A DNA stretch of 64,000 bases from Moniliella sp. 'wahieum' (Eukaryota). Where the stretch lies: contig RSEE01000038.1 in NCBI GenBank assembly GCA_003971905.1, positions 124,001-188,000 of the forward strand, read 5' to 3'. Below, one piece after another: positions 1,970 to 62,320 of the stretch (positions are counted from its first letter, which is position 1; each line of letters begins with the position of its first letter). A program made the position numbers and the translations under genes. The notes beneath the pieces were generated by a model. It worked only from the letters and a program-made list of their open reading frames with translations, did not search any database and was not told the DNA's origin.

Positions 1970-2540
1970 GGCTGAGCGCCTGAGCGCTGATCCTCTGAGA
2001 TCTGGGCATGCGCTGAGTACTGCGTGACCGCCACCGCGTCACGTGTCAGGAACTATGGCATCGTGCATCGGCATCGCCCCGATCAGCGGTGACATTGACA
2101 TGTGACGCGTGACACAGGTGATGCACGGGGCAGCTGTGGGCAGGATGCGCCCGCTGAGCTGGGCTGAGGCACTGGGGCACTGGGGCTGAAAACGCCCGAA
2201 CAGCCGAGCGCGAAAGCGGCGTGCGTCCTCCGATTCGATTTGCCCCAGCAGTGCTGCACTGCATGCATCCGCTTACCTAACCCAGCGCTCAGCCTCAGCA
2301 ACCCATTTCAACGCGATTGCTTCATCGTGTGGGTCACATGGTCACATGCACATGTCACGTGTCACTGCGGGTCACTAGTCACTTGGTCACTCTGACCTGA
2401 CCCAGTCACCTGTTGCGCCGCGACCACCTACCGCAATGACTTGACCCCTGTACTGACTGAACGAACTAGGGAGCTGATCGATCACGAGCACGGAGGGTGA
2501 ACGAACCGCCTGTTAGGGCTTGAGCGATTATCGATTACCT
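1970..2540. repeat. Field of A-NNNN-T palindrome / 7-bp-register micro-arrays in the TRK-tubulin divergent intergenic region
   Basis: ctgagcgcctgagcgctga (about 1972-1990); ACATGT-G-ACGCGT (2098-2110); gtcacatgcacatgtcacgtgtcac..gtcactagtcac (2341-2382); cgattatcgatta (about 2525-2537). Confidence 0.7.
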
Positions 2541-3664
2541 CGGGCGCTCCATCCCGGACGCCATATGCTCAACGAGCTGTGACTGTTGTGAGTGGAGGAG
2601 AGTAAGAGAGGCCGAGACGGGGTGGGAGGAAAAATGCTATAATAGACGTACGGACTATACCGACCGATGGAACCGGAGCACTCGGAAGATCAGGAATGGA
2701 TGTGTTGAACCACATTTTGCTTTGGTCTTGGCGACGCTCGGATTGGCAGCTTCAAGAGCCACCCCTCTCACCAACAAAATCTGCAGTTTGACGATGAGAG
2801 GATGAAACAAACGCTATATACCCCACCCACCCCCCCACCCATCACAGCATACCATTCTCGGACTTCTTTGAATGATAGTACGGGACAGCCAAACAGTGAA
2901 ATACGATACAATTGCCAAGATACTTGATGAGGATTTGGAATGTAGATTGCTGGTAAAAGCATCAAGAGAGAGAGCGGGTAGTACTCTAGACGTGGAGAAG
3001 TGAGATCATTTCGAGGACGGACGAGGCCAATGAGGCATATATTCACGGCGGTTAATGTTTTGGTCTTCCACAGCATATGGGAAATCCGTACCCTTCATTC
3101 TCTCTGGGTCCCCCTCCCTCCTTGAGCACAGCATAGCCTGTAGCATGAAAACACACATCTCGCCAATCCCATTTCCTTCCACGATAGCCCCCACCTTTTC
3201 TTTGTTGGAAAGAGCTTCTCATGATAGAGAGGGGACTGTGCATGTCGACATTACGCATTTTTCATCCAAGTACCGACCAACAACCATGAATACGTGAGGA
3301 CATGAGGCGTGAAAACTGCCAAGGTGTCAACTGTGTAGTGATCAGAGACATCAAGCTGTGGGCGGTGACGCGCCGACGCACCTTTTGAGCTTGAAGCTTG
3401 ACATTGGCCTGACCTGCTAGTGACAGGTGTAACACCTTGACATGTGACATGCGGCGTCCGACCGGCGGCACAGCGGCAGTGTTTCCCGCTTTGACAGATA
3501 CTTTGCCCCGCCAAGTGGCGCAGTGCCAGGCCTACCGCCGCGCCACATACACGCCCTCGTGCTAGCCAATTTGTGTGCACTCACGTACTGTGCCCCTGTG
3601 CTCTGTGGCCACCGCTGTTGGCCACAGCCCCATATGCGCGAGCGAGCATAGTGCGTATTTGGTC

Positions 3665-3670
3665 TATAAA
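3665..3670 (+). promoter_or_regulatory. TATA box upstream of alpha-tubulin
   Basis: TATAAA about 120 bp upstream of the ATG at 3790, followed by a pyrimidine-rich leader. Confidence 0.5.
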
Positions 3671-3789
3671 GCCGAATCGGGAACCACGCCTGACTTCCTC
3701 CATCTTTACAGCTTCTTTCTTTCCCACCACCTCACAGACCCCATCCACTTTTATACCGGACGACCACTTCACTCTTCAGTTGACCCACC

Positions 3790-5130
3790 ATGCGCGAAGT
3801 CCTCTCTCTCCATGTCGGCCAAGCTGGCATCCAGATTGGCAATGCCTGTTGGGAGCTTTATCTCCAGGAACATGGCCTTTCTCCGGATGGGCACCTTCTC
3901 GAGGGCTCCACGTCTTCCAACCACGATGGATTCAGCACCTTCTTTCCGAGACCGGGTCAGGCAAATATGTGCCCCGCTCGATCTACGTTGATCTCGAGCC
4001 GAATGTGGTGGACGAGGTCCGCACCGGCACGTACCGCTCCCTTTTCCACCCCGAGACTCTTGTCACAGGGAAAGAGGATGCAGCCAACAACTATGCCCGT
4101 GGCCACTACACGGTGGGAAAAGAAAGATTGACGACACACTAGAGCGTGTTCGCAAGCTAGCTGATGCCGCAGGAGGCCTGCAAGGGTTCTTTGTGTTCCA
4201 CTCCTTTGGCGGCGGCACAGGTTCAGGATTTGGATCGCTCTTGCTCGAGCATCTGGCGCATGATTATGGCAAAAGGCCAAGCTCGAGTTTTCAGTCTACC
4301 CAGCGCCGATGATGTCTTCATCGGTTTGGAGCCGTACAATTCGGTCCTCACCACCCACACAACGCTGGAAAACTCAGACTGCTCCTTCATGGTGGACAAC
4401 GAAGCACTGTACGACATCTGCAAGTCCAAACTAGGGATTACGTCGCCTTCGTACTCCAATCTGAACCGCTTGATCGCTCAGGTTGTCTCTGTCACCGCCT
4501 CGCTCCGCTTTGAGGGCTCTTTGAATGTGGATCTCACCGAATTTCAGACCAACCTCGTGCCCTTCCCGCGCATCCATTTCCCACTTGCCGCTCTCCTCTC
4601 ACCCATCATCTCGGCCGACAAAGTGTCGCATGAGCAGAACAGTGTTGCAGAGATGACGTCTTCCGCATTCGAGCGCGGTAACCAGATGGTCAAGTGTGAT
4701 CCACGCGAGGGCAAGTTTATGGCTTCCTGCCTTTTGTACCGGGGCGATGTAGTGCCAAAGGATGTCAACACGGCCACTGCCGCGATCAAGACCAAGCGCA
4801 CCATCCAGTTCGTCGACTGGTGCCCGACTGGTTCAAGGTCGGCATTTGCAATCAAGCGCCGGCACAGGTGCCGGGGGACCTGGCTCACCTCAGTCGCTCG
4901 CTCTGTATGTTGTCCAACACGACTGCGATCGCATCGGCTTGGACGCGCCTTGACCGCAAGTTCGACTTACTGTATTCGAAGCGGCTTTTGTGCACTGGTA
5001 CGTCGGGGAGGGGATGGAGGAAGGCGAGTTCTCCGAGGCCCGCGAGGACTTGGCTGCCCTCGAGAAGGATTACGAGGAGGTTGCTGCCGATACGGAGGTG
5101 CAGGAAGACGAGCTGGAGGAGGAATATTGA
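3790..5130 (+). CDS. TUB1: Alpha-tubulin (apparently intronless; several sequencing-type frameshifts)
   Basis: [106 protein letters not shown]; acidic tail ending ...ELEEEY* (TGA 5128-5130). Confidence 0.97.
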
Positions 5131-5904
5131 AAGCATGGCTGGCTAGTTGGAAGTGCCTGTGGGCACCTTTTGAGTATTGTACCAGTTCTTCGTTCTTTCT
5201 CCTTTTACCTTTTTTTCTTTGACGATCTCGAGGGTGGTAGTAGTGTTTCGTTTCGCATGTCTTCTTACATCCATTTTATCGTTGCACGAGAAGGATGAAC
5301 TTGTGGGACGGCATGCTACCTCCCTTATAACGTTTTCCCACATTTACGCCCCTGTGTAAGACGAATCCAGAGCGACTGCTGTGGCGGGCTATCTAGATAG
5401 GCGCCGTGGAGTGTGCGATTCAGTGGGAGCTAATAACTGAATGATTAAACGCGGAAGGATGAATAATTGTGGGCGATTATGATGGACTTATGTTGGTCTC
5501 TGCAATACACACATTTTATGCGAAGCTTGAAGCATGACATGTATGATGCACGACAGAGAGTGCAGGAGCCTATGTAGTTCTCGCGCTACTGGTGCAAAAC
5601 ACCTGTATGCGGTTGCACCAGGCTGCAGTCCCGACCGGAGTGTGGCGGTGAAAACCGATGAGAATAAGAAAAGAAAGAGAGGAACCCGGCGGCCTATAAT
5701 AGTAGGGCGAGGACTCTGCGGTGGAACAGGGTGGCGCCCAGGGTGGCCACATGACTCCGCCCGACTCCTCCCGACTCCGCCCGCACAGAACAGGGAAGCT
5801 GTAGATTGACACGTTGGGGCTGGGAGGCAGGCACAGCAAGGACAACGCACATCGCCCGTGCCGGTTAAACGTCGGTTAGGCTTCCACTGTCGATAATCTC
5901 GATG

Positions 5905-5929
5905 ATCGATTATCGATTATCGATTATCG
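5905..5929. repeat. (ATCGAT-T)x3 palindromic heptamer array
   Basis: ATCGAT at 5905-5910, 5912-5917 and 5919-5924, each separated by one T; further tcgat copies flank it (5889-5946). Confidence 0.9.
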
Positions 5930-6775
5930 CTTCGCTTATCGATGATCAATTTAATATCAAGTCAGGGTCCACACTGTGCTGGCGCCATGGCGCCCGACAG
6001 AGAAAGCCGGCGCGAGCACCTGACGTGGGACCTGCAGGGTGCGGACTTGTGCCTGCAGATGTGCCAGGGTGCACCGTGCGCGACGCTTGGGCCGCAGCGT
6101 GGGCCCAGTGTGCATGCTGGCCAGGCGGGGTAGCCGGCAGCAGCCAGCCAGTGTGTGACAGGTGAAGTGGTGGCGCGTGACATGCATGACAGCGGTGGGA
6201 AGCAAAGCATCCCACAGGCGGGAGGGCGCGGGCGGCGCGGGGTCTGCGGGGAGGCGCAGGGGGCGCTCTGCACTCGTCTAATCTCCCGCTAGTCTGGGGA
6301 ACACAGTGGTGCGGTGGGGGGACTACGGCGCAGGGGCGAGACCACCGACAGCGTTAGGCTGCCCTTGGGCCGGGTAGGCCGACAGGCGCCGCATGTCGCT
6401 GGCCGATAGCCCGTTGCGGCTATATACGCACACCCCCCTCTCCTGTCCTCGAGTCGCCCAACGCCCCCCAGCACAGTACCTGCGCCCCCCTGCCCCCACC
6501 CCATCGCGTTGCCGCTGCGGAGTTTGCGTAACACTATCCCCATGCCTGCCCCCATGGCTGTCGCGCCATCCGCCCGCCTACGCTGCACCCATGTGGGGGC
6601 TACATGGGCCGGTGCGGGCATGTGGGCTGGCAGACCCTCCCCATCCAGCATCCGCTGCCGGCCGAGCAACCAAACGGGAGTGCGCGTTGAGGCCGCCACT
6701 CTTTTAACTCCCCCACACCGCCTCTTCCCTGCGCGACCGCCACCTTCCTCCCTCTCTCTCACCCCTTCCCTCGCC

Positions 6776-9050
6776 ATGGCACATCTGCTACGCAGCTTTG
6801 TCGATGGCTTCAAGCCTATGGAGACTTCCAGCAGCCAGCCTGGAGCAATGTTGACCACGAGATCTCCCCGAGGAGCGACGTCGAGAAGACGTCGGTGCAC
6901 AAGTACGAACTCGAGGGGAAGCTGGCCAAGCCTACGACTTTCCCAGCTCGGGCGACCCAGAGCATAGCGGCGACGCGCCGCATCTGCAACGCCACCTCAA
7001 CCAGCGCCACATGCAGATGATTGCCTTTGGTGGAAGGTCAGTTCGCCCCCCCCCCCCCCTTCCCTCCTGTTTTTGATGAGCGTGCAGCTGACCCTTTCGA
7101 CACTTGCATTGGCACAGCATCGGCACAGGCCTGTTTATTGGCTCGGGCGGATATACCAGACGGGTGGGCCCGGGTTCTTGATGCTTGACTACCTTCTGAT
7201 TGCGAGTATGCTTCTCTGTGTCGTGCTCGATTTGGAAAATGGGAACTCTTTTCCCCATCTCGGGCTCCTTCGCTGCCTACTCGACCCGCTTCGTTCGCCT
7301 GCATGGGGATTCGCGATGGGGTGGAACTATTGGATGCAGTGGTTTTATTGTCCTCCCACTTGAACTCACCGCCGCCTCGATCGTCATCCGCTTTGGGATC
7401 CAAAGGACACATTAGCCCAGGCGTGTGGCTCGTCATCTTTATTGTGATCATCGCTTCATCAACTTTTTTGGTGTGCGTGGCTACGGGGAGTTTGAGAGCT
7501 TTGCTTCCATCATCAAAATCATGTACGTCTCCTTTTGTCCTCTCGTCAACCTTTCTCCTCCTTGTGCAAATGTGTACTGTCGTAATAAACTGACTTTCGT
7601 TTTTTTCTTTCTTTCTCAGCACCGTTCTCGGCTTCATCAGTATGGCTTCCCCTCGTTGCGTTAACACGTTTATTGCGGGACACTATAACCTAACATTTTT
7701 TTAGTTTGCGGCAGTGTCATTTCGGCTGGTGGTGCTCCCTCTCACCAGAACATTGGCAATAAATACTGGAACCCTCCTTCGGATGCGTTCAAGAACGGCT
7801 TCCGCGGCTTCTGCTCTGTATTTACATCGGCTGCCTTTGCCTTTGCCGGTATGTATGCACATGCTCATTGATGTCAAGAAACGCGAGAGAGAAAATAACA
7901 GTAACGGCTCACAGGTACTGAGCTGATCGGTCTCGCTGCCGCCGAATCGCACAACCCTCGCAAGGATATGCCCAAGGCAGCGAAGCAAGTCTTTTTCCGT
8001 ATTATGCTTTTTTATGTCGTTTCGCTTCTGGTCATCACTCTCATTGTCAATCCCGATGACCCGCGGCTGACAGGCACTTCCTCGTATGATGCGCGCGCCA
8101 GCCTTTCGTCATTGCCATTCAAATTGGTAAAATCCACGCTTTGCCGTCCATTTTCAATGCAGTGATTCTCATCTCGGTTCTGTCCGTGGGCAACTCAGCC
8201 GTGTACGGTGCCTCACGGACACTCACTGCCCTGGCGCAGATGGGCCAGGCTCCATCTCTGTTCAAGTACATCGATCGCAAGGGCCGCCTTTGCCGGCAGT
8301 GATCCTCAGTTGGCCATGGGCTTCCTCTCTTTCCTCATTTACTCCTCGTCCGAGTCAGACGTGTTCAACTGGCTACGGCACTCAGTGGGGCTGTCAACAA
8401 TCTTTTCTTGTACGTTCGAACCTCTGTGCGACAAGTAGGCCTGAGCCCAGCTAACTCTCCCAACTCCTCTCTCTCTGCCATTGTCGAAGGGGCTCTGTCA
8501 CCTTCTGTCACTTCCGCTTCCGCCAAGCCTGGTCCTATCACGGACATACACTTGAGGAGATTCCGTGGAAGGCTCCCACAGGCATGATTGGCTCGATTTG
8601 GGGCACTTCGTTCTGTTTGCTGGTGGTACGTCACTTTCACCTCGCAGAACAGTCTCGTCAGTACATGCACTCACCCCACGTATCGTTTGCACACAGGTAC
8701 TCTTTGAGATCATATTGGTTCTTGGCCGATCCATTCATCAGACAATGCTACTGCCTCGGGCCGCGCCGTCACTTTCTTCCAGGACTGCCTGGCCATCCCC
8801 GTTGTCGGTCTCTTCTTCTTCGTTGGCCTTGGACTGGAACAGTGTCTTCTGTACACGCTGGAATGTGACGTGCGTGGGACCGCCGGTATGGGCATGGCCA
8901 ACCAAGGTCTGGCCGACAACAAGTTCCGTCGGATTGAAGACATTGACATTGTCACCGGCCGACGCCTGGTGCCTCTCGATTCTCCGGCAAGAACGCGAGG
9001 AGGCACGCCAACAGCCGTTGATGAAACGGATTTGGAGTTTCTTCTTCTAA
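6776..9050 (+). CDS. Amino-acid permease, APC/YAT family (Gap1-like), 6 introns
   Basis: [81 protein letters not shown]. Introns 7037-7117, 7523-7619, 7640-7704, about 7848-7914, about 8410-8488 and about 8625-8696, with GT donors, AG acceptors and CTRAC-like branch sites in most. Ends ...KRIWSFFF*. Confidence 0.92.
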
Positions 9051-12547: not shown

Positions 12548-12590
12548 TAGGGTTACTGCAAAGATTGCCGCAGCACCAACACCAACCCTA
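12548..12590. promoter_or_regulatory. Telobox/Homol-E/Tbf1-like elements upstream of the ribosomal protein gene
   Basis: TAGGGTT (12548-12554) and AACCCTA (12584-12590) in opposite orientations, just upstream of the RPS1 leader exon. Confidence 0.35.
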
Positions 12591-15721: not shown

Positions 15722-15762
15722 ATTTAACGTTTAACGTTCAACTTGAACATTTAACGTTTAAC
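15722..15762. repeat. AACGTT heptamer-register array upstream of CCT4
   Basis: AACGTT at 15726-15731 and 15733-15738 (1-nt spacer), then ttcaacttgaa and tttaacgtttaa. Confidence 0.8.
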
Positions 15763-16923: not shown

Positions 16924-16947
16924 ATCGATATCATCGATCATCGATCA
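16924..16947. repeat. ATCGAT palindrome array
   Basis: ATCGAT at 16924-16929, 16933-16938 and 16940-16945 (the last two on the 7-bp register, C spacer). Confidence 0.8.
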
Positions 16948-17797
16948 TCCCATCTTGATCTAAAACAGCTCCACAAGTGGGACCAATTCCGCTCTGGGCG
17001 GAAGTGGAATGTGATCTGATTGTTCGTTATTTAGCCTGCATTTTTTTCCGTACCACTTTTGTCTGCCACCACCACCTCACCACCACACACCGCTCAATCT
17101 TCGACAGTCTGCGTTCTATGTTGACTAGTGAGTTCTACCTTCCAATCACTTCACAAGATGAGCAAAATACCTTTTTACTGTGAACAATCCAACACAGAGC
17201 GGGTAGGACCGCTATGAAGAGACCGTGTATTCGTCTCTGACATTTTCAATGAGTCGGCCCTTGGTGATGATTACTGACATGTGCCTTTTGTGCTGCTTCA
17301 GACTCACAGTAAAAAAGTTCAAGTTTAGTATGGTTAAGTATCGTGTCAATATCATGTTTCCTTGCAGCTTTCGTTTGTGTTATTTACATGGCCATACCTC
17401 TCAACTCTCGACTGAAGAAAGCAAACCAAGTGGAACTTGAACCATGATGGAAAGAAGTAGGCTGACTGTCATTCGCTTCAAGCACCGGTGGAAGAGGGCG
17501 GTGACCGACGATAAGAGCAGAACATCCCAATGCAGAGGGGAAAGGCCTACTAGTGATGGAGAGCTATCCGAGTCATGTAATGCAAAAAGCCCTGCTTCTC
17601 ATTAGCTGCTTCCATCGGATCATTCAGATGATCCTATTCTTGGACCCTTACACTTACACTTACCCACATAACATTCAACGCTAGCCCTAGGTTTTTCACT
17701 CTACCCGCACCATTTATGGTTTCCCCGCCGCGGCGCCATCAGCAGAACATGGTAAATTCAGAATGCTGCAAGAGTACGAAGCTGTATCTTGTGCAAT

Positions 17798-19349: not shown

Positions 19350-19440
19350 GAATTTGAGCGCCTGAGCCGCACCTCCCGAGGGGAGGGGCCTCGCCAGAGG
19401 CTCAGGCTCAGGCCTAAGGCCGTGAGGCCTGAGGCCGCCG
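19350..19440. repeat. AGGCCT/AGCGCT-type micro-array upstream of ADE13
   Basis: tgagcgcctgagcc and ggctcaggctcaggcctaaggccgtgaggcctgaggcc. Confidence 0.65.
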
Positions 19441-20969: not shown

Positions 20970-22235
20970 GGTAACGCGTAACGCGTAATCCGTAACATCT
21001 CCTGTTTTCGATATTTGCTCGGTAACCGGTAATGCGAACCGGCGCGACATACAAAGAGCGAAGCTAGCATACGCATGATGCATAACTGGAAGCTTTAAGT
21101 TAAAGTGCAGCGAGCTTCAAGCTTCAAGGCATGCTTCAAGCGAGTCACTAAAAGTCACGCCAGTCTGACTAGTCACTAGCGTGACTGTCATCGATCACCG
21201 ATCACTGGCTAACTAGTCACCGGTATCATGCATGTGAATAAGCGCGCGAGCATCACTAGTCACTAGTCACTAGTCACTTGCATCGCTAGATCGGCGGGGG
21301 ATCTAAGACACTGATCATCCCGAGAGAGTCGCTGGCGCCGCATATGAAACACCAACGACCGCCGCGCCGGAAGATGCGGGCAAATACCGCTCCTGCCTCT
21401 GGGGACCGCGCTCTCCTCTCGATTCCATGTCGAACGCAAATACTTAATCAGTAATAGTCTTGTAGGAGTCAGCTCTACTGGGAAGGCTAGCAGGGCAGAG
21501 AAGTACTCAAGGAGGCAGAAGGAGGCATGTTGCCAGGAAGGGAACAGCTGAGAGGGTCACCAGTGTGCCTATAAGAATTGACCATGAGGGCATGAGCTCG
21601 AATTAATCATTGATCACTCTCTCTTCGGGCTCTCCTCGGACCTTCCACACAGCGACCAATCCGCCCGCCTCTCCGGATCGTCATGCACGTCATGCGTGCA
21701 TCCATGCACCATGGTAGTAACTGCTGTTGAACGGTGCGGCTGAGCTCAGCCTGAGCATTGAGCGGCTGAGCGTGTTGAACGTTGAACCGTTGAACACGTT
21801 GAACACGTTGAGCGTTGAGGTTGAGCCTCAACGTTCAAGTTGAACGTTGAACGTTGACGCGTGACGCGTTACACCCTCTGCAAGTTTACATGTTGACACA
21901 GAACTACAAGCTTAGTTGGGTCAAAAGAAACGCTACTAAAATGCCTATATCAGGCTCTCGCAGCGGTGAGGCTCACCACGCTCAGCCTGAGCGCTGAGGC
22001 TCAGCGCTCATCGCTTATAGATGAGCCTCATCCGTATGCTTGAAGCTTGACTAAAGGATCAGCATGATGTGATGACTCCCAGGGACTAAGAATTATCAAT
22101 TACCAGTTACTAGTTACCGGCCTGGCTTTACCGGTTACCATCAGTTAACCGTTACGCGTTAACCGTTATATGCAACCGTTACGCGCGTTTTTAACGTATA
22201 ACAAAACGTTTAACCATTGAAGCTTGAAGCTGAAA
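20970..22235. repeat. Dense field of palindromic heptamer-register arrays (ADE13-MFS intergenic, left part)
   Basis: ACGCGT-A-ACGCGT (20974-20986); ACTAGT-C-ACCGGT (21212-21224); (ACTAGT-C)x3 (21255-21274); AACGTT-G-AACGTT-G-ACGCGT-G-ACGCGT (21843-21869); AGCGCT cluster about 21985-22010; ACTAGT/ACCGGT/ACGCGT with T spacers 22100-22190; AAGCTT-G-AAGCT (22220-22231). Confidence 0.9.
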
Positions 22236-23039
22236 GACCGAGTAGTACTGTTGCATCTAATATCATCGCCTGATGCTAGGTATGACCCTGTTGGGTATGC
22301 ATGGGCGTGTTTTTGCAGCAAACATACTCAGAGATCTTCTCGCAGAAGCTGATGTTGCACCGTGGCTTTGTGAGGGGCACTGCCCTATTAGTTAGATGTT
22401 TGTTTGAGGTTTAGCCTGCGCCGCGCGTCCTATCCGTGGCGCCTCCACCTTGTTCCGATTGTAAGCCGCACATGTCAGTACTCAGTAGACACCGCTGGCT
22501 CATTCCTACCGCGCCGTCCGCCGTTCCACTCTGAGCTGCATTTTTAGGGTAATCAAGGTCAATGTTGTGGCTGTTGACTGTGTGTGGCTTTTCCGCGAAG
22601 AGACGGGTAATCTTCATGAGAAGCTATATATACGAGCCACAACCAATAATAGCACTACTAGTTAACCCTTATACCGGCTTTTCTTTATAGGCCCTTTCTC
22701 TAATAAGGCCTTTGGCCTTTGCCTAGTGTGACCGGCAGGTTCAACACGGTCGGAGAAGCAGGCCACAGTGTCATGGCCCTCCCACTCCTGACCTCGTTGG
22801 AACTGTTGTGCACGTTGCACTACAGATTGATATAGCCATTATGGTGACAGGCACAGCCACTGTCCAAACCACCACACTGCCTTTTGTGGCGTATGAGCGC
22901 TCTGAGCCCCTGATGGCTGAGAGTGCTCAGATCTTAGATCAGGAGGGTGGGGGGGGTTAGGGGTTAGTTAGGCCTTGGGCCTTAGTGGAGAATGCGGGAC
23001 TGGAGCTGCGTTCGAGCGAAACAGTGGCGGCAGATCTTA

Positions 23040-24220
23040 CAGTCCGGCCTGAGGCCTGAGGCCTGAAGGCCAAAAGAGAAAAGACACTGCCAGGGCTAAC
23101 CCACTACTGCCCCTAAAGGGCACCATTTCCCTCCTTGCCATTTGCGCGGGCCCATACACTTGGCAGTGGCTTCGACTTTCCGCGTGCGATGCCTCGCTCT
23201 TCGGCCCAATTAACCGAAAGAGTGGCGACATGCACGATTCGTGAAGCTTGAAGCTCCTGAAGCTGGAGGCCTGAGGCCCTCAGCCTGAGGGTGAGATATG
23301 AGATGATCGATTTAAGTATGTACCGGTGACGACCCCCAGTCACCTAGTCACCGGTCACCTTCGAGCTTCGATGTTAAGGCGTGAGCGCGTGAGCTGTTAG
23401 CCCTCAGGCTTATTCAGGGCCTCAGCCTCTGCCTCAGCTCAGCGCGCTCAGGCCGCTCAGCCACCGCAGCCTAAGGATTGGCAGACTTGCCACCGAAAAG
23501 CAAAGGCGCTGAGGCGCACAGGTTCACCTCTTCTTAGACCTTGGGTCTTGGGGCTTAGCCGAAAACTCGGTCGCCCAAACACATCAGGGAAGTGTGGTGT
23601 TTTTGTTCTGCTGCGTAGTATGCAGCGCCCATAGCTGATTGAAGGGATGGGGATGGCGACTGGAGCTGACGGTCACGCCATGTAGGATTCCAACTTGTAC
23701 TGGCCGTTCCCAGCACCTGGGTCGAAAGGGCCACAATGAATAGCTGTTGCGCTTTCGGCTCGGCTGGGTCCGGTCAGGCTTGGTGACGCGTCACGCGTCA
23801 CGCTTCAAGCCCTCGTCGATAGCCGCCGGCCTTCAGCTCTCGATCATCCAACTCATACACCACCCGCGACGATGACGACGTCACCATCGGATCCTCCAGA
23901 TCGGAGGCCATGATGCATGACATGCATGACATGTGACGTGTGGCACTGCTTCGGCTCGGGCTCTAGGCACTAGGCTGCCTAGGTCTGACTACCTAGGCGA
24001 CCGGTGACTGGTGACCAGCGAACCAGTGACTAGTGTGACCTGATTGATGAAAACAGTCGGAGCTGCCAGGTGTCCGGTGTATCCATATCCATCACCTCTG
24101 TTGTAACATGCAAAGGGGGAGGCACGGGGGGTCAACAGTGCCCTCGTGCTATGCAGGGTGTGTGACGCGTGACGTGTCGGACGCGTGACGGTTCAATGCG
24201 ATCGATCAATCGATCGAACT
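23040..24220. repeat. Second field of palindromic heptamer-register arrays upstream of the MFS gene
   Basis: AGGCCT-G-AGGCCT (23052-23064); AAGCTT/AGGCCT about 23244-23280; ACGCGT-C-ACGCGT (23786-23798); ATGCAT-G-ACATGT (23922-23934); ACCGGT and ACTAGT about 24000-24035; ACGCGT and ATCGAT 24165-24215. Confidence 0.85.
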
Positions 24221-27029: not shown

Positions 27030-27585
27030 CTGGCTGAGAGGCTGAAGAGTGCTGAGACGCTGACGAATAGCTGAGTTACTGAGTAACTGACGACACTGAG
27101 TACGATTGACCGTACTGACCTGAGTGAGTGCAGTGGGAGTACTCAAATAGCGAGTATACGCTCAGCCGAGCTGAGTACTCAGACTGAGTTGAATGTTGAG
27201 CGTGGGTGTGATTCCACCGCGATGACTAACTCTCTAGTACAGAAACGCTTCGCCTTTCATCATCTAATGTGGCGTACTGGACCTTAGGCCTCTGAGATAT
27301 GAACTACAACGAGCGGAGCGAAGAGGTGGGGGTGGTGAAGGAAGAACAAACAAAAACGCTGTAGTAACGAGCGTTTGAGATGAGAGAGATTTGAAAAACT
27401 GCAATCGCTTTTTTTCATTTTGTGTTCAAGCATGCTTTCACTTGGTGCAGCTGGGTTAGTGCGCTGAGATGAGGATCCCTCGGCCTAAGCTGCCCCTGGC
27501 GGCCGCAGCGCGCATTAGGCACGGCCAACGTCCAACGCTGGTGGGGAGCGAGTTGAAGTTCAACGTTCAACGTTCACGTTCATTC
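27030..27585. repeat. Decayed TGA-periodic tract and AACGTT array between the MFS and GRR1-like genes
   Basis: Many ctgag/ctgac units at roughly 7-10 bp spacing (27030-27200), including ctgagtactcag; AACGTT-C-AACGTT at 27562-27574. Confidence 0.65.
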
Positions 27586-28111
27586 AGCAACCTAAAACTT
27601 GTGATGTGTTGCGCGTTACTTTGGTGTGGCATGTGGTGTTGGCATTGTTGCGCGTGGGGGGTGGATAGGTAGACAACAAGGGACTGGAGGGTGAAATGTG
27701 AAATGTGATGTGTGGATGTGCGATCTGCGATGGGTCAGCAGGTTTGCCGCTGCGGTGGCAGCTGCCCAGTGCGAGCAGGCACCAACGCAGCCCCACGCAT
27801 CCACTCCGTCAGGGGGTTGATGCCATGGCACGTGACCAGTGACCAGGGGCCGGTGACTGGGGCAGTGGGTGGGCGGGGCCCGGCGCAGGAGCAGTGTGCT
27901 GCTGGGTGGCACTGGTGGTGGCGGCGGCCTGCGTGGGGCGGCGCTGGCTGGGCAAGGCCCGGCAGACGCCGTCATGCATGCACATGCATGCCCATCACGC
28001 GTCAGTGACGCAGGTACGATGCATGTTACGCAGCCGCCGCTGCTCTCCGCCGCCCGACCTGCTCTGCCCCTCTCGCCACCCCCGGACTCCACCTCCCTCC
28101 ATCCCCTCGCC

Positions 28112-32479: not shown

Positions 32480-33160
32480 GGTGACGCGCTGAGCGGCTGA
32501 GCGGCTGAGCGCGCTGACGCGTGACGGCAGGCAGCCCAAGGCAGCGCGGTGCGTGGCGGGGTGCAGGAGGTGCCGGTGCTGGGCAGCGCTGGGCGCTGGG
32601 CAGCATGTGTGGCTTGTTTGGATGCAGAAGCGCACAGTCGGAGCCAGGCGCTTGCTGTGCTCGGAGCAGCCAGTGATCGATCGGATCGATGTCGGTGATC
32701 GCCAACCTGGCTTGTTTGGTACGTTTGCCACACCTTCCTTCGCCCCTGGACAGGTGGAGCCAACCCTAGGGCCCCCTTTTTTTCTTAGGAGAGAGCGGGT
32801 ACGGGGGCAGTGGTTCGGAGTGCGACTGCGTTGCCGCGCTGCCGCAGCTGAAGTAGTGCCTTGTCAGCGCATGTCAGCCATGTCAGCAGCGCTCTGCTTG
32901 ACATTAGGTGCAGGTCACTGATGCGTGACGAGGTCACAGGATCACTGATCATCGATCATTTGATCATAGAACACGGCACACGTCACCGGGTCACCAACAC
33001 ACCACTAGCACTAGTCACTATATCACTATTGGACAAGGTCACCGGTCATCGATCATCCGGTAACCCGGTCGCATGTCTGTCACATACAACAGCGCTTAGG
33101 CTGAGCTGTTCAATGAACCTGGGCGCCTCAGCGCCTGAGCGCCTGAACGCTGATACTCGG
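32480..33160. repeat. Palindromic heptamer-register field upstream of the RRM gene
   Basis: gctgagcggctgagcggctgagcgcgctgacgcgtgac (32488-32525); tgatcatcgatca (about 32946-32958); cactagcactagtcac; ACCGGT-C-ATCGAT (33041-33053); cagcgcctgagcgcctgaac. Confidence 0.8.
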
Positions 33161-38800: not shown

Positions 38801-39169
38801 GCTGTATAGACGGGGGGCATCATATAAGTTCGGGGTTGGTGTAGTAATTACTGGTTCCTCCTGGACGCCAAAAAACGGCGGGCTGGCTGACCACCACAGG
38901 CTACCACCCGCGTACCCAGGCGAGCGGTAGGCGATGCTAGCTATACGCTGAGACCTTCCTACTCCCACTGGGTGTGAAAACATTGTCTTGGGATAAATCG
39001 ATGAAGCTTAAAGAGCTTAAAGGTTAAAGAAGCTTCCGCGACGGAATCGTCCAGAGAATAAACTGAGGCTAGGCAAGAGGGGAAAATGGGCCGAATCACG
39101 TGACTCGCAGTCGGCTGTGCTATATATGCGGATGGCAACAAGCTGCCAACTGGGGATGTCTTGGCCACC

Positions 39170-40380
39170 GTCACGTGATGGTTGTGGGTGTGGCATGTGC
39201 ATGATGCATGAGGCCGTGAAGCTAGCGTGAAGCGTGACGCGTGAGGCATGTATGAGGTCCATGGCTGTGTGTGTGCTGACTTGGTGGGTTGGACGTTGGA
39301 GGCTGGGTCCAGCAAGAGTCGCTCAGGCTGAGCAACGCTCACCACCAGGGCGAAACACGAGGAAGAATGGAGAGGGTACCTAAATGTTGAACATGGTCTT
39401 GTGTACAGAGGCGCTGCATTTGCAATTGCCCTCTGCGGTCGGTCGCTCCTCGGGCTCGTACTTGAGGTGGTGAAACGCCCACCAAAGAAACCCGAACTGA
39501 GCCGTGTGCGGGCGGGCAGGCTGCAATTTCTTGATGGTTAGGCGGCCAGGGTCACGCGTACCTGGAGGAGGTGGTGGGGATGGTGTTACGTAAGTGTCGA
39601 AGCGGACGCTCCACGCGGTGGTGCCGGTGGCTGGGCGGGCGGCAGTGGAGGAGCCAGCGGGGCCTCGGCCGTGCCCTGCCCTGCCGGTGACCGGTGAGAT
39701 GGACGATATCGGAGACAAGTCACCCATGTGGCCTGTGGCCCGGGGCATGTGCCGTGTGACATGATGCATGATGGGACGCGTGGTGCGAGGCTGAAGAGGG
39801 CGGAGTTTGTTGGTCCTTACTTAGTACTTGGCCTGCGCGCCTAAGCCTAAGCGCTCAGACGGAGTACTCAGACTGTGAGTACTCAGATAGATCAGACTGA
39901 GTACCACGGAGTACAGGTGTTTGGACGTTTAGACGTTACATTTTAACGTACCAACGTTTATTAGTGCGTGTTAGTAGGTTTAACGTTTAGCAAACGCTTA
40001 GCTATGAATGGGAGATGGGATGCATTTGAAAGCGTGAGCGTGAGCGCTGAGCCACTCAGCGCTGAATCACACATTTGAGCCGGTGGGCGGGTGTGGCCTG
40101 GTGTGGCGCCCGTGGGCGGTGGACTGCAGTGGAGCGCATGTTGCCCGCACTGCCTGCGCTTGGTTGGCGTGTGATGCTTGTGCGCAATGGGTGATATCGG
40201 GATGTGGATGCTGCATGGCGATGCATGACTTGGGCCTGGGGACCGGTGATTAAATCACGGCAGCAGCCGGGCGCTTTGTGGAAGCGACCGGAGTGGGTGG
40301 GTGTTGGCTTACGTGACGCGTGACGCGTGATATGTGACGTCAGTAGGACCACCCATCCCGCGTCACGCGTCACGCGTCTG
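39170..40380. repeat. Palindromic heptamer-register field upstream of the 40.7-kb gene
   Basis: gcatgatgcatga and gtgacgcgtga (about 39200-39245); AGTACT at 39863 and 39878; AACGTT cluster 39945-39990; tgagcgctgag..tcagcgctga; ACGCGT-G-ACGCGT (40316-40328) and its mirror ACGCGT-C-ACGCGT (40365-40377). Confidence 0.85.
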
Positions 40381-40673
40381 GCGCCATGCGGACACCGCCG
40401 CTGCGGCAGGGAATCAGCGCTGAGGCAGCGCTGTGCGTATTATTCAGTGCCTGGCAGGCTGCGGATGCACCTGTCGATATCCCCGTCCTATTTTAGGTTT
40501 AGGGGGCCAGCAAAAAGATTATCGACGGCTGGTCGGCTGTCTCCCCCCGCCCATTCCACGCCCAGCCGGTTGCCCCCAGGCTGCCTCTGCTGTGCGTGGT
40601 GTTGCATGCTCTGCCTGCCGTGATCGTCTCGCTCCTCGCCTCTCCTCGCCTCCACGCTCCTTCTTGCCCCCCC

Positions 40674-51039: not shown

Positions 51040-51985
51040 TCACTCAGCCTCAGAGTCTTCTGTGCGGTCGTCGTCCTCGCCATCAGCACCCTCTGGGCCA
51101 AAGAGGTTGACTGCAGAGCCTTCATTGTCCAGCGCATCCTCCTCGTGGGTTTGTTCCCGGGTTACTGCGGGGTGACGGTTAGGGTGACTTGTGCACGGGT
51201 CACACGCCAAGCGGTCCAAATTTGAGGGATTTACCTCGCGGAAGATGCGTGTCCACAATGCCCTCGAAATTTTCCCGTGCACTCAGTGGTATAGGTAGGT
51301 TGGGGCGATGAGTGAGAAAAGTCAGATGACCCGCTGGACGACAATGGGGTGGGGTTAGCTGAGAAAGTAGACCAGAAACTTATGAGGTTTGGGTCAACGC
51401 ACCTCGTTACCCACCTCTGGATGATGTTGGCTACGGCCCTGTTGATGATGGGTATAGTGTTTGGGGGATGCGTCGAGAGCGGTGGACGCTAGACCACCGT
51501 CAGCAATGTGGTCTGGCGAACATGCGACAGAATTCGACAATTCTTACCCACAGTGGCACGGCCGTGACCTTGGGCGTTGTCTGCGTTTTATCTGATCTGA
51601 TGAGACCTGCAGTCAAGATGTTCCTCGAGGGTGCATGATGCAATCGCACTGGTGGTGGTGGTGGTCTAAGCCAACCAGCAAACGCCTACAGAGATGAACA
51701 TCAAGCAGCGATGAATCGCCACCAGGGGCTAAGCTGCGGAACAAAAGGAAAAACAGGAGAGAGAAAACAACGGAACTCCCAGGCCTGAGGAGGATCTGGA
51801 GGGACATTGGCCAAAGCACCATGAGCCACCCGGTTGTGGCTCAACATCATCGACATCTTCCGGATCAGTTGCCTATATGCGCCTTCATCGATCATCGTCA
51901 TCTGTCACTGTTTCACGGACCGTCCGGATGCGGGCGAGGAGGCGAAACCGGATGGAGGGGGATCGTCCACGTCCGATTCATTCAT
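51040..51985 (-). CDS. Orphan multi-exon gene or pseudogene (copy A of the inverted pair)
   Basis: ATG at 51985 (MNESDVDDPP..IRFRLLARIRTVRETVTDDD). Canonical introns at 51489-51547 (GTAAGA/GCTGAC/TAG), 51334-51402 (GTGCGT/GCTAAC/CAG) and 51165-51234 (GTAAAT/CCTAAC/CAG). Acidic last exon ..EEDALDNEG..DDDRTEDSEAE*. Confidence 0.5.
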
Positions 51986-56259: not shown

Positions 56260-57845
56260 AACGGCCTGAGCGTAAGGCGTAAGGCGTAAGGCGCAACGCC
56301 TGGTGCCTAACGCCCAAAATAGTTAACGTTAAACACCAGGTGGGGGAGTTCTCCCCACCAGCCGCAGCCTGCCGCAGCAGCCGAGGCAGGCACACTCTGG
56401 CGCCATGCCCCCGCACATCCGACTGGCGAGCACTGCTCTGGCCACCGGTTGGCCCCGGTGGCTGCCAGTGGGCCCCGTGCATCTTCCATCGACACGCCCA
56501 GCACCCGTCCTGCGCCGGGCCCGAGCAGTGCTTAAAGCGATTCACCATTCACCACTCAACGCATTCACCCACCATCACATGTCACAGATCGCGCGCCGCA
56601 TTGTCACACTTCCCATCGACACTGGCCCCATGCTTCCCCTCCCACGGCGGAGAGTGCCAATCGATCGGCTTTCCCAGCCAACGCCCTGCTGCTGCCGTCC
56701 CGTGCTTGTCTTCCCCTTGGCGCAGGCTGCATGGCACGGGCAGGGTTACGCGGTTACGGCAGTGCACGGCAGGAGGCAGGACACGGCACGATGCAGTGAT
56801 GCATGATGCTAAGATGCATGATGCCGATGATGCACGGGACGGATGTCGATGGTCGATGCCGGTGGTCGATGATGCATGATGTATGGGACAGCTGCAACGC
56901 CAGGCACGCGTGCGCGTTGGGGCTGCAGCTGGGCAAACCGAATGCCGATCCTTCCTCGGGTCACAATGTGGCGGGGGGCAGCTACTTCAACCACCACACG
57001 GCGCCTGTGTCCTCGTGCTGCCGATCGTCCTGCGGAGTTCGTGCAACACCGCAGCAACCGCAGTACTAGTAGGCAACCGGCGGGGGGGGCATCTGCCTCC
57101 AAACCTCTGAGATCTGAATCTGATTAGCTGGCCAGCGTCGCTCGTCCACTCGCCCTACCCCATTAATCCACCGCTTCAACCATTCCATCGTTGTAGAAGA
57201 CCAGAGAGCAGGCAGTTGGTGGTGGATTGCATTGCCCCTCAGCGCAGGAACTATTACAGAGAGGCTAGAGAGCATTCCTGCCTCTTGCCCTCCAGGGAGG
57301 AATCCTGGAAGGCATACCGCAAGGATCCGGGCTTGCGCTACCAGCGCCACTCCACCAGTGTCTAGTGTGGCGCCACGATAGCCCCTAGCCTTCCCTAGCT
57401 CTCTGGCCTGTGGGCGCCACGACTGTGCGGACGGCGTCGGCGCTTTTTAGGCCTGTTTAGCTATGGCATTTCAGGCCTTATTATGGGTTTGCCGGTTACC
57501 GCTTACCGGCTACCGGCCATTAAGCTCATTAAGTTCCTTCACTCATTTTGCGGGAGAAGAGATTGGGCAATGACCTTAATGACCCTGAGGCCCTGAGGCC
57601 TCAGACTGAGGCTCAATCATGCTATTCTTTGTCCACTGGGCCACCACAGTGAGTGGATCGGATGGTTGATCCCCTCACGCCGCTTTCACATCTCGGTCCC
57701 TTCCTTGCGACGACGACGACCGAGGACAGGAGTTGCGGTGCGGGGACGCCAGGGGACGCCACGTACCATGCGATAGAAAACAAGCCCATTCCAAGTAAAG
57801 CAACAAGCTTCAAGGCTTGAAGCTTGACGCATGAAGCTTTATTGC
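56260..57845. repeat. Heptamer-register micro-arrays upstream of the Sel1 gene
   Basis: (gcgtaag)x3 about 56270-56291; gttaacgttaa; tgatgcatgatgc..gatgcatgatg (56797-56880); ccggttaccgcttaccgg; ctgaggccctgaggcctcag; aagcttcaaggcttgaagcttga (57805-57828). Confidence 0.7.
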
Positions 57846-59498: not shown

Positions 59499-59965
59499 GG
59501 TGAACAGATGGGCAATGCGCAACACGCTCAACCTCAACGGCTCGAGGGGGGAGAAGAGGGTGTGAGCTTGGCGTAAAGAAGCCCGCAAGCTGGGGCTCAG
59601 CTGCGGTAAAGTGAACTGAGGTGGCTTCGCGCTTCGGCCCTCCACGTGGTGGACGGACATTGCAAAAGTGAAACGTGAAATTGTGGGCTCGGAGTACGGA
59701 GTACGGAGTAGACAATACTTGCAATGTTCATCACAGAGCTCGGAGATGGTTGGTAGGCGGAGCTGCTGCTTTGGACTTTCCCCACGGCGGACAAAAGGCC
59801 GGGCGGCAGACTAATAAGCTACTGGCCAGGTTGTGAGACAAAAGGGGAGGCCAGTTACTAAGGCGTCGCTGTCGCTGATCAAGGACGCCGTCAACAGGCC
59901 CTTGCCGGCATCTCGACCACCACCCGCCTCTCCGGCTAGCTCCCTCCCCCCCCCAAACGAACAAA

Positions 59966-61850
59966 ATGAGAGCCATATCTCGTCCGTTTTTCACGTCGAA
60001 TGTGCGTGCCGCGCTGGCACACACCCGGGTTCCGGCCCAGGCCTCAATTCGCCTGCTGAGCACCTCTCTTTCCCCTTGGAGCCCGGCGCTGTTCCGACTC
60101 GAAGCACAGCCCGAGAGCTCGCTTCGTACTCCCACGGGCCAATTGGCATTCGATCCACCTGTTGAGGTTCAGGATAAGGGCGAGAAGGAAGCGTGGGCCC
60201 TGGTCGGTCCTGCGACCGAAGGCGCAGGGGAGATTCGCTCCGCACTCACCCGCCTCCTTTTGGGGCGGACAAGCACAGGCCCGTTGGGAGTGAAAGTAAC
60301 CCACCCTTTTTTGCGTGGTACGGGCCAGGAAGCGACGCAGGCGGTGCAGCTCTGCACATTTTCAACCCGCCTCAGCGGTGCGGCCCAAGGGTTTGTGGAT
60401 TACTCGGTGCGCTACGGTGCGATTCGCGACGAGGATAAGTTGACGTTGTACGAGTCGCTGATGGAAGAGTTGGGGGTGGCTGTGGGCAATGTCGCGCATT
60501 CCCTGCTTCGGCCCGACCCGCTTTCTCCCCCGGGGATAGCACAGGCATGTTCAAGTGGCCCTCGGAGGCGGCCAAGCAGGCAGCGATTGAGCAAGCGGTT
60601 GCGGCAGACGAAAAAGTACGCGAAATGGGGGCATTGTTGTTCCTTGGCAAGGAACTGCTAGAGCGACCGTTGATCGCTCTGTCCAATGGCCAAACCCGGC
60701 GAGCTCGGATCCTGGCCGCGTTGCTCAAGGGCGGCAAAGTGGTCATTTTGGAAGAACCGTTCACGGGGTTGGATCCGCCCACCCGTGCCCAGGTGTCCGA
60801 ATTGCTTCAACATCTTCATCAGAAGCGCGACCCTCGGATCTTCCTTGTGCTCCGGCCCCAGGATTCGATCCCCGAGTTTATCACCCACCTCATCCGGATC
60901 GGGGACGATGGGCAAATTGTTCATGTGGGCCCCAAGGAAAAAGACCTTGGTCCTTCCTCCGCCCCCGGAGCGGAAAAGGGCGGGTACGAGCTGGTCAAGG
61001 CGCGTGCGTCGGTGCGCACGACCGAGCAAACAGATCCCGTGGTGCGGCTGGATCAAGTGACCATATCCTATCCCACCAAACAAGTCTTGACCAACGTCTC
61101 CTTTAGCCTTGAGCCAGGAAGTCACACCATCCTGGTGGGGGACAATGGCAGTGGGAAGACGACGTTGCTGGCGCTCTTGTTGGGGGACCACCCGCAATCC
61201 TATGCTTTGCCCGCCGAGCGTCTTACGCGCTGTTTGGCAAAGCGCGGGCCGACGCGGAGAATGCTACGGTCCGTTTGCGTACACGCGTGGGACACTTTAG
61301 TCCCGAACTGTTCAATGCCTTCCCGCGCCGCGCTGTGGCCCGGGGCGGGATGACGGTCGAACAGGCGATCGGGTCAGGATGGTGGGGGATTTTCGCGGCG
61401 CGAAGCTTGACGGAGCAACAGAGGGAACGCATCGAGGGACTATTGAGCTTGTTTTACGATGTGCTGCTCCCACGAACTGGCGATGTGCCCACCTCCGTCT
61501 CTCACTTGGCCCACACTGACTTTTCTGCACTTACGCCGGGCAGCCAGGCGGTGGTGCTGTTCCTGCGTGCGGTGGTGCACCAGCCGGAACTGTTGGTGTT
61601 GGATGAACCGTTTCAAGGCATGGACGCACGCCAGGTGGCACGGGTACGGGCGTATGTGCATGCCATGCGGCTTGGGCCGGGGGCAGACCCGTTCGCGGTT
61701 GGAACGTCAGAGGAGGCAAGACGCAAGATGCGCTGTGCCGCCAACGAACGGCTGTTGTCCTCGTCTCGCATTACGAGGCAGAGTGGGTTGCCTCGGCCGA
61801 CCGGCTGGTTCGGTTGCGTGATGGAGAGGTGGTGGAGTTGCTATGAATGA
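59966..61850 (+). CDS. Soluble twin-NBD ABC ATPase, ModF/YDR061W-like
   Basis: NBD1: LSNGQTRRARI and VVILEEPFTGLD. NBD2: GDNGSGKTT, VGHFSPEL, LTPGSQAVVLFLRAVVHQPELLVLDEPFQGMD. No TM segments; Arg/Ser-rich N-terminus. Confidence 0.88.
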
Positions 61851-62270
61851 GCAGGAGCGGCTGGACGATGTGCAGCCGTGTGCATGCGCAGAAGCGTGTA
61901 GGGATGTTGGTTGATTGGATCGCAGCGGGAGAGCGTGAGATGGCTTACAGAGGGTATTGGTTGGGCTGGGCAAATGTAAGAGGCGAGTGGATAGTTGTGA
62001 TATATGGCGCGTATACCGATGTGGATGCCAATACAGGGGAGTGCTGGCCAGAGGGGGGCAGACGGGGGACGCTGACTGTAACGAACGTTGAGCGACACAC
62101 CTTCGCTCAGCGGCTCAGCTCAGCACAGCCTGAATATGGGAGGCAGTGTAGAATACCGACCAGCGCTTGAGCTAGACGCTAGAACGCAGCACCTACTGTA
62201 GCCACGCCCCACCCCGAAGGGCCACAGGGGCAGTGTGCTGGCGCAGGCGGGGGTAGGGTTTGGCTCGGTT

Positions 62271-62320
62271 CAACTTGAACGTTCAATGTTCACGCGTGCA
62301 CGCGTTCACGCGTACGCGTG
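62271..62320. promoter_or_regulatory. Cluster of four ACGCGT (MCB-like) sites plus AACGTT upstream of the ISWI gene
   Basis: AACGTT 62278-62283; ACGCGT at 62292, 62300, 62308 and 62314. Confidence 0.5.

Follow-up and report, generated by a model that had tools for sequence, protein, structure and literature searches.

We analysed a 64-kb window of the genome assembly of Moniliella sp. 'wahieum' (contig RSEE01000038.1, positions 124,001 to 188,000), whose intergenic DNA carries arrays of short palindromes set in a 7-bp register around the triplet T-N-A. All counts given here refer to this one window, and coordinates are numbered from its first letter. The window (57% G+C) is nuclear eukaryotic DNA, and the genes recognised in it encode alpha-tubulin, an amino-acid permease, ribosomal protein S3Ae, a TCP-1 chaperonin subunit, adenylosuccinate lyase, an F-box/LRR protein, an RRM protein, a histidine phosphatase, a protein kinase, a Sel1-repeat protein and an ABC ATPase. 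A search of the window against Rfam at the gathering threshold gave no match, and neither did a tRNA scan. The host is a Ustilaginomycotina-like basidiomycete, because a fragment of the adenylosuccinate lyase matches the proteins of Tilletiaria anomala (80% identity) and of Parajaminaea, Microstroma and Acaromyces (73-76%); further database matches of this fragment reach 88-93% identity.

Reading the alpha-tubulin gene (3790-5130) in its conserved frame requires five frameshifts, all in the same direction, and there are no introns in this stretch. Four of the five junctions were read (at about 4115, 4275, 4830 and 4985), and each falls at a short homopolymer. The frame breaks are those of an unpolished long-read assembly with homopolymer deletions, rather than introns. 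It follows that open reading frames (ORFs) are broken by errors, that our gene map is approximate and that gene calls based on ORFs are unreliable. The window also contains runs of 14-15 G or C residues at 1661-1675, 7046-7059 and 33195-33208, whose true lengths are uncertain because of the deletion errors elsewhere in the assembly.

A palindromic element built on T-N-A

An earlier note on this DNA had described, by eye, arrays of self-complementary hexamers of the form A-NNNN-T with interchangeable cores, separated from each other by a single base so that each junction reads T-N-A. Compared with 200 dinucleotide-preserving shuffles, which served as the control for hexamer and pair counts, such hexamers are indeed in large excess (327 vs. 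172.2 +/- 12.7), and none of the 200 shuffles reached 327. The excess is specific to outer A..T, the C, G and T classes of palindromic hexamer being at or below expectation (304, 306 and 163 vs. 314, 319 and 185, respectively). Among even palindromes of 4-12 nt, enrichment was seen only at length 6 with outer A..T (z 12.8), with none at lengths 4 and 8; palindromes of 10 nt with outer T occur at about twice the expected number. The one-base spacing is specific, too. Pairs of A..T hexamers with a 1-nt spacer number 22 vs. 0.38 expected, a count matched in none of the 200 shuffles, compared to 2-5 pairs vs. about 0.4 for spacers of 0 and 2-6 nt, and no pair enrichment was seen for the C, G or T classes at the spacers tested. 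The T-N-A junction also holds: the second base after an A..T hexamer is A in 45% of cases (background 20%), and the spacer base itself is G or C in 69%.

The element is defined most sharply as a T-N-A triplet, a 4-nt self-complementary core and a second T-N-A triplet. The window contains 100 such elements, vs. about 7.5 in shuffled sequence (z 33). TNA-N4-TNA frames as a whole number 219 vs. 127, and the entire excess consists of frames with palindromic cores. The length of the core matters, since palindromic cores of 3, 5 and 6 nt within the same frame are far more weakly enriched (56 vs. 33, 25 vs. 8.6 and 3 vs. 1.9, respectively), as does the identity of the flanking triplet: comparison frames built on ANT, CNG and GNC gave 5, 14 and 40 vs. 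8.4, 28.1 and 25.6.

What is conserved is symmetry and spacing rather than sequence, as the earlier note had maintained. All 16 possible A..T hexamer cores are present in the window (at least 12 had been counted by eye), and 13 different palindromic cores share the single T-N-A frame among the 100 elements: CGCG (16), TCGA (13), ACGT (12), AGCT (11), CTAG (10), GCGC (9), GGCC (7), TGCA (6), CCGG (5), CATG (4), GTAC (3), AATT (2) and GATC (2). The hexamer ACGCGT occurs 39 times, and ACGCGT followed by N and A is the commonest unit (16/100 elements). The enrichment of each core was measured in 21.5 kb of array-rich non-coding blocks, picked by eye, with the C, G and T classes as internal controls. 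Here the A class reaches 3.4 times the expected number, compared to 0.9-1.0 times for the other three classes. Each of the 12 mixed cores is enriched (1.8-8.4 times), all being used and none dominating. Three of the four cores made of A and T alone are at 1.0-2.0 times expectation and the fourth, ATATAT, at 7.4 times, an excess that we tentatively put down to TATA or (TA)n sequence. The repeated unit, T-N-A plus the 4-nt core, is equivalent to a 7-bp odd palindrome centred on T-N-A, and these 'dyad heptad' repeats are both real and non-coding.

Two palindromes of other kinds were also noted. TGGCCA, with 46 copies, is the commonest T-class palindromic hexamer of the window (12 vs. 8.9 expected in the non-coding blocks). 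The 13-nt palindrome GTGATTAAATCAC occurs twice, at 40246-40258, upstream of the ORF at 40424, and at 49201-49213, beside the end of the kinase ORF; it may be a binding site.

The arrays lie outside coding DNA

For the comparison with coding DNA we used ORFs supported by Pfam or by their length, because single-base deletions break the reading frames and a codon-bias exon mask was too crude. The rarity of the arrays in coding sequence noted by eye was borne out, with A-class hexamers occurring at 2.4-2.6 per kb in the supported ORFs vs. 6.7 per kb elsewhere. The coding density is about equal to the 2.7 per kb that we calculate from the shuffle mean. Hexamers of the C, G and T classes are equally dense in both compartments (11.7-12.5 per kb in ORFs vs. 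11.8 elsewhere). Only 2 of the 22 hexamer pairs with a 1-nt spacer fall inside supported ORFs, both of them at the 5' edge.

The position of the elements relative to genes was taken from a rough, hand-made gene map. On this map, 61 of the 68 strict loci (those with at most one change from the ideal lattice) lie in the approximately 30 kb of intergenic DNA, and 5 of the remaining 7 are at the 5' edges of ORFs. The loci are unevenly spread. A single 4.7-kb island at 19.5-24.25 kb, between the lyase and the next gene, holds 29 of the 68 (43%); the 2.2 kb that precede the ORF at 40424 hold another 11, and the DNA upstream of tubulin holds 7. No strict locus falls within the divergent region of 1.9 kb that adjoins the ribosomal protein gene (10.8-12.7 kb) or at 43.8-45.7 kb. 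The earlier claim that most intergenic regions hold arrays was therefore too strong; at the positions it named arrays are present, the one at 44.1 kb being weak (one 9-bp repeat). Such unevenness is not what one would predict of a general promoter code. Relative to assigned gene starts, 37 of the 100 elements lie no more than 1 kb upstream, several of them within 10-120 bp, and arrays that share words at different loci have nothing else in common. The spacer base shows no preference for the sense strand of the gene (G 34, C 25). We rejected the idea that the arrays serve to place stop codons in all frames on account of this lack of strand bias.

The arrays and their surroundings are listed in Table 1. 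Two unusually long stretches lack recognised genes in a region that is otherwise compact, 19500-24248 (4.7 kb) and 35506-40424 (4.9 kb), and together they contain 40 of the 68 strict loci. They could have been lengthened by the arrays, or could hide unrecognised genes or non-coding RNAs. A telomere-like GGGGTTA repeat (2.1 units) follows a G run at 22944-22970, inside the densest island. Elsewhere, ATGAAACA stands twice in tandem at 10722-10737 and resembles the yeast pheromone response element.

Table 1. Positions, composition and surroundings of the repeat arrays in the window
Position	Arrays	Context
1971..2114	Cluster of CTGAGCGC, AGATCT and AGTACT, then TGACATG/TGACGCG heptads	Far upstream of alpha-tubulin
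2332..2391	GTCAC word array, 7- to 10-bp steps	
3388..3451	TGAAGCT and TGACATG heptad pairs	About 350-400 bp before alpha-tubulin start
5892..5955	ATCGAT-T/G array, 3.6 exact units inside a longer decayed array	
15723..15762	AACGTT-T/C array	Adjoins 5' end of TCP-1 gene (minus strand)
16924..16949	ATCGAT-C array, 2.9 exact units	
19410..19436	AGGCCT-A/G array	Near 5' end of adenylosuccinate lyase gene (minus strand)
20971..21280	ACGCGT-A, AAGCTT-C, ACTAGT-C (3.7 units), many GTCAC words	Start of densest island
21716..22231	GTTGAAC/AACGTT-G into ACGCGT-G (4 hexamers in register), followed by words of AGCGCT, GTTAC(C) and AAGCTT-G	
23032..23476	AGGCCT-G (3.0 units), AAGCTT-G, ACCGGT-C and CTCAGC arrays	
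23783..24215	ACGCGT-C, ATGCAT-G/ACATGT-G, GGTGAC and GTGACGC arrays	End 33 bp before ORF start 24248
27558..27857	AACGTT-C array and TGA-containing heptads	Upstream of F-box/LRR gene
32482..32526	Period-8 GCTGAGCG array (odd palindrome AGCgGCT + TGA) into TGACGCG	Upstream of RRM gene
38997..40432	ATCGAT/AAGCTT, ATGCAT-G, ACGCGT-G, ACCGGT-G, AGTACT-C, AACGTT-T, AGCGCT-G	Second island
40312-40378	Inverted pair of ACGCGT arrays	In second island, just before ORF at 40424
51885..51894	TCA-TCGA-TCA element	At gap between inverted paralogous copies (51.85, 53.05 kb)
56786..56877	ATGCAT-G array	Upstream of Sel1-repeat gene (minus strand)
57583..57839	CCCTGAGG (period 8) and AAGCTT-C/G arrays	
62268..62334	AACGTT-C and ACGCGT words	Before ORF at 62354

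The units are repeated head to tail

Two dyads lie 3.5 bp apart in each unit, and a 7-bp period could arise either by reflection about them or by simple repetition of the unit. The earlier note had proposed the former, an iterative fold-back by template switching or by hairpin opening with addition of P-nucleotides, or else a protein reading TNA half-sites or cruciform structure. In the non-coding blocks, direct repeats of 6-mers at an offset of 7 number 226 vs. 5.5 expected, compared to 49, 71, 88 and 53 at offsets of 6, 8, 9 and 14, respectively. Inverted 6-mer arms peak at a spacer of 1, at the much lower level of 44 vs. 5.7. The spacer bases tell the same story. The two spacer bases of an element (N1 and N2) are identical in 72 of the 100 elements, where we calculate about 33% from the spacer base frequencies, and complementary in only 12. 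Thirteen arrays have three or more junctions; 8 of them use one spacer base throughout, 5 are mixed, mostly at an end unit, and none alternates. Even arrays that pass from one core to another may keep one spacer base (GGG at 2096, CCC at 33039). The generator is thus a translation by 7 bp, since direct repetition dominates and the spacer base is not complemented; the two dyads are properties of the unit.

Exact period-7 arrays number 47, vs. about 4.5 by our estimate, and the output of the repeat finder TRF contains many period-7 rows. The repeated unit is dyad-symmetric in 23 of these 47 arrays, vs. 10.6% of random 7-mers, and all 23 belong to the A..T class, a further indication that symmetry is what is conserved. 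Symmetric units are seldom seen at period 8 (3/13) or period 9 (1/13). The longest exact array has 3.7 units and most have 2.0-2.9, so that array growth looks stepwise rather than runaway. TNA-centred odd palindromes of 7, 9 and 11 nt occur at 1.6, 2.1 and 3.8 times the expected number, respectively. In the flanks of the elements, the 7-bp period persists in 57-59% of cases at +/-1 and in 47-56% at +/-2; around isolated elements (n=70) it usually runs on for just 2-3 more bases.

Divergent copies of the lattice

We scored every 14-mer of the window against the ideal lattice and merged those within two changes of it into loci. This gave 139 lattice-like loci, covering 2.6 kb, vs. 27 in shuffles; 22 of them are perfect, 45 are one change off and 72 are two changes off. 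In the 45 loci with one change, the single violation affects the T or A in 9 cases, the outer core pair in 16, the inner core pair in 17 and the spacer in 3. TNA-N4-TNA frames with one mismatched core pair number 61 vs. 45.5, compared to 100 vs. 7.4 for perfect cores.

A self-BLAST of the window returned only one inverted pair of about 280 bp and one weak 60-bp match. The members of the pair (51849-52128 and 52795-53050) lie 670 bp apart and are 75% identical over 281 nt; no domain was found in them. They could be the facing starts of paralogous genes, or the arms of an old element. Their alignment has about eight small gaps besides one whose position coincides exactly with a TCA-TCGA-TCA element. 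As drawn by MAFFT this one spans 9 columns, which we read as 2 + 7 bases. The gap may thus reflect a 7-bp insertion or deletion, as a single anecdote in a diverged pair.

Comparison with known systems and with other DNA

Promoters of Saccharomyces contain short, unstable tandem repeats, made up of a few head-to-tail units in nucleosome-poor upstream DNA and absent from coding DNA. The arrays described here resemble them in being head to tail, upstream of genes and absent from coding DNA. The repeats of the Saccharomyces type are mostly A/T-rich and obey no rule on the unit, however, while half of the exact 7-bp units here follow the rule of T-N-A plus palindrome, in DNA of 57% G+C. Micro- and minisatellites that grow by slippage differ in the same way, the unit here being constrained and no array exceeding 3.7 exact units.

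The commonest unit points to a known binding site. The consensus of the MluI cell-cycle box (MCB), bound by MBP1, Res1 and Res2, is given as 5'-ACGCGTNA-3', and a single MCB duplex can accommodate two DNA-binding domains (PMC4333399). The ACGCGT + N + A unit matches this consensus letter for letter, including the N-A. The other 84 elements carry 12 other cores in the same frame, unlike the MCB, and the arrays occur much too often to be the mark of a cell-cycle regulon.

Arrays of contiguous short units are also found in the met boxes of MetJ and in heat-shock elements, the heat-shock unit being 5 bp long. Another parallel is plasmid pSM19035 (omega/ParB type), in which 7-10 contiguous 7-bp WATCACW repeats each bind one ribbon-helix-helix dimer, an established architecture (PMC9499535). 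Like these, the arrays here consist of short, contiguous, symmetric or near-symmetric units in strict register, with two dyad centres tiling the DNA, and the plasmid arrays offer the best mechanistic model for a protein-bound lattice. The plasmid arrays differ in being bacterial, with one consensus and units in both orientations, compared to a free core in a fungus. No ribbon-helix-helix domain was present among the Pfam matches of the 150 longest ORFs. We know of no pSM19035-like heptad-binding protein in this fungus.

To our knowledge, no class of transposon insertion has been described in which 7 bp around a central T-N-A are duplicated. The palindromic target-site motifs reported for DNA transposons (PMC2577343) share with our element a target of twofold symmetry, with the duplicated bases at its centre, and direct duplication over a fixed length. 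Known motifs of this kind prefer particular bases, rather than any palindrome.

When metagenome contigs were scanned for three ACGCGT-N units, at least 134 stretches were found. Among the matches listed, 77 loci of at least 1 kb were scored and the multi-core grammar was absent from all of them, the core being essentially CGCG alone. The contigs that we inspected look prokaryotic and are unrelated to the window. Five of them (L070, L032, L010, L023 and L048) have arrays of 3-5 ACGCGT-N units with varying N in short intergenic spacers. In L070, the arrays (2599-2618, 4564-4583, 5477-5496 and 9529-9548) occupy the short spacers between operon-like genes for hydrogenase, ferredoxin/Fe-S protein, PFOR and fumarase; a 23S_rRNA_IVP-family gene is also present. 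These arrays resemble those of the window in their heptad step, varying N, length of 3-5 units and position between genes, and differ in having one core per genome stretch and in lying on operon-like contigs. They could be operator arrays or elements like the repetitive extragenic palindromic (REP) sequences. Four other contigs of 66-70% G+C (L004, L022, L056 and L064) have non-coding DNA packed with TGACGCG heptads and with GTCCCAT-type, CCCTCGAC-type and ATCGATCTCGATCTC words, in a style that recalls the window, but come from an unrelated organism.

In viral contigs, stretches of three CGCG heptads with outer A..T, T..A, C..G and G..C number 8, 36, 12 and 77, respectively. The rule of A..T and T-N-A is thus not general to heptad palindromes and is specific to this lineage; it is not a general physical property of such repeats, because the viral heptads show no preference for A..T. 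Full-text literature searches found no description of this grammar, in keeping with the earlier note, whose author knew of none.

Discussion

The account of the arrays that we favour, tentatively and at somewhat less than an even chance, is that a mutational process specific to this lineage has produced most of them, adding 7-bp units in open intergenic DNA, the copies then decaying. It is based on the dominance of direct repetition, the inheritance of the spacer base, the stepwise growth, the tail of decayed copies, the gap read as 7 bp at one element, the use of all mixed cores, the lack of polarity relative to genes, the very uneven distribution and the chance level in coding DNA; the agent itself is inferred. 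One 7-bp unit would be added per step, head to tail, at palindromic heptamers centred on T-N-A, and the target would be open intergenic DNA, mostly on the promoter side of genes. The agent would be a twofold-symmetric, presumably dimeric, enzyme or complex centred on T-N-A, which might either cleave the two strands 7 bp apart, with filling-in of the ends, or provoke a 7-bp slip. Point changes would afterwards erode the copies. Those arising in coding DNA would be removed, since 7 cannot be divided by 3 and both TGA and TAA act as stop codons, and the arrays themselves need have no function.

Several observations weigh against such a process. By our arithmetic, palindromic TNA heptamers are preferred about 35-fold per site over non-palindromic ones (23 vs. 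10 arrays, with a chance of 1 in 16), and neither this preference for palindromes nor the T-N-A requirement nor the 7-bp step has a demonstrated cause. No reading that we considered accounts for the acceptance of almost every palindromic core alongside the rejection of non-palindromic cores; base-specific protein contacts do not predict it, and short hairpins are too weak to impose it. The core is also crisper than simple neutral decay would have it, because frames with one mismatch are barely enriched and perfect ones strongly. The elements lie on the 5' side of genes, often 10-120 bp from ORF starts, as binding sites do. The Pfam matches of the 150 longest ORFs include no transposon or nuclease gene, and the window yielded no element whose terminal repeats are flanked by duplications of this type. 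Finally, the evidence is strong statistically and narrow in scope, coming from a single 64-kb window of an assembly with base-deletion errors.

The position of the elements and their fixed geometry invite a regulatory explanation, the main rival, which we regard as possible though clearly less than probable. The arrays would then be homotypic clusters of sites for dimeric proteins that contact T and A, one dimer per 7 bp, with different cores read by different paralogues; they would have arisen by 7-bp duplication and been kept by selection. The twofold symmetry, the strong dependence on a core length of 4, the promoter-side position (many elements are 10-500 bp upstream of ORF starts), the crisp palindromic core and the recurrence of the same composite words at unrelated promoters without common flanks all fit this explanation, as do the match of the commonest unit to the MCB consensus and the precedent of contiguous 7-bp units that each bind a dimer. 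It is less easily reconciled with 13 cores in one frame, which would need about a dozen paralogues of common geometry, and we know of no fungal family of that kind. Moreover, identical spacers in 72 of 100 elements reflect history rather than binding, decayed copies are abundant, some promoters have no elements while one island has 43% of the strict loci, and there is no orientation bias. Sites for bZIP, E-box and zinc-cluster proteins were rejected as being of the wrong spacing or class (TNA-N2-TNA frames 124 vs. 128; C-class hexamers at chance). A further, improbable explanation is that the elements are transposon scars. They would be either excision footprints of elements that duplicate T-N-A (3 bp) and leave behind two bases of each inverted end (TNA-xy-y'x'-TNA), or target-site duplications of 7 bp that persist where an element has excised cleanly from a palindromic target motif. 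T-N-A is directly duplicated around a short palindrome, usually with the same N, arrays in which the core changes over a constant spacer base would fit repeated insertion at one site, and palindromic target-site motifs with staggered cuts are reported for DNA transposons (PMC2577343). End remnants, however, predict a few fixed cores rather than 13 in fairly even use, the 7-bp period extends into the flanks beyond what a 3-bp duplication would give, and non-palindromic TNA frames are not enriched. The 64 kb contain no terminal-inverted-repeat element flanked by such sites and no dispersed repeat family, no convincing terminal repeats were found around 2.56-3.33 kb, and the 150 longest ORFs include no transposase domain. 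Helitron insertion between A and T was considered and dropped, and so were hAT-type nTnnnnAn duplications, since the T....A hexamers that they predict show no excess (163 vs. 185).

The remaining explanations we consider very unlikely. Fold-back about the two dyads draws on the unit having two such centres, on the enrichment of TNA-centred odd palindromes rising with their length and on some neighbouring cores that differ by one symmetric pair of changes, as correction by template switching could produce. Reflection must complement the spacer, however, and the predominance of identical spacers, the lack of alternation in the longer arrays and the excess of direct over inverted repeats (about 5:1) mean that fold-back is largely refuted as the generator and could survive only as a keeper of core symmetry. 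A role for DNA structure, whether as hairpin- or cruciform-forming DNA or as slippage stabilised by hairpins, with the fold selected or favoured, seems equally remote. When folded as single-stranded DNA, the arrays are predicted to form hairpins with 5-bp stems and T-N-A as a three-base loop, and for 4 of the 8 arrays that were folded the structure is more stable than in shuffles (z -3.2 to -6.0), the inverted pair of ACGCGT arrays in the second island being among the better folders (-26 kcal/mol). The other four differ little from shuffles (z -0.4 to -1.8), a lone 6-bp palindrome cannot fold, the period-8 and period-9 arrays are seldom symmetric and the viral heptads show no preference for A..T. 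In standard folding parameters, the especially stable three-base loops of DNA are G-N-A and not T-N-A. Least credible of all is an artefact of assembly or basecalling. The assembly is error-prone, as the alpha-tubulin frame shows, but the errors observed are single-base deletions in runs and the arrays are not homopolymeric; the use of at least 13 cores, the stop at coding DNA and the graded tail of decayed copies are not expected of a basecaller.

The arrays belong to a known kind, the short tandem repeats of promoters, and it is the symmetry rule itself for which the literature has yielded no description. That this rule amounts to a new grammar seems to us doubtful, with perhaps some chance of being true. 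It would then be either a symmetry-defined regulatory code, read by one or more dimeric proteins that bind pairs of T-N-A triplets 7 bp apart across any palindromic core and polymerise along the heptads of promoters, or the trace of a novel activity of twofold symmetry, DNA-breaking or transposase-like, by which 7-bp palindromic duplications are introduced into open chromatin throughout the genome. In both cases the sequence grammar would be of a class new to eukaryotes.

Should the pattern prove to be genome-wide and present in accurate reads, about one-tenth of intergenic DNA would follow one symmetry rule (from 139 lattice-like loci with 2.6 kb, out of about 30 kb of mapped intergenic DNA), for which neither a described factor nor a described mutational process accounts. 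Such a rule would lead either to a new promoter DNA-binding architecture or to a new signature of break repair or of a mobile element, and in both cases a small fungal genome allows the question to be tested directly. In practical terms, the arrays will confuse motif discovery, promoter comparison and repeat masking in related fungi.

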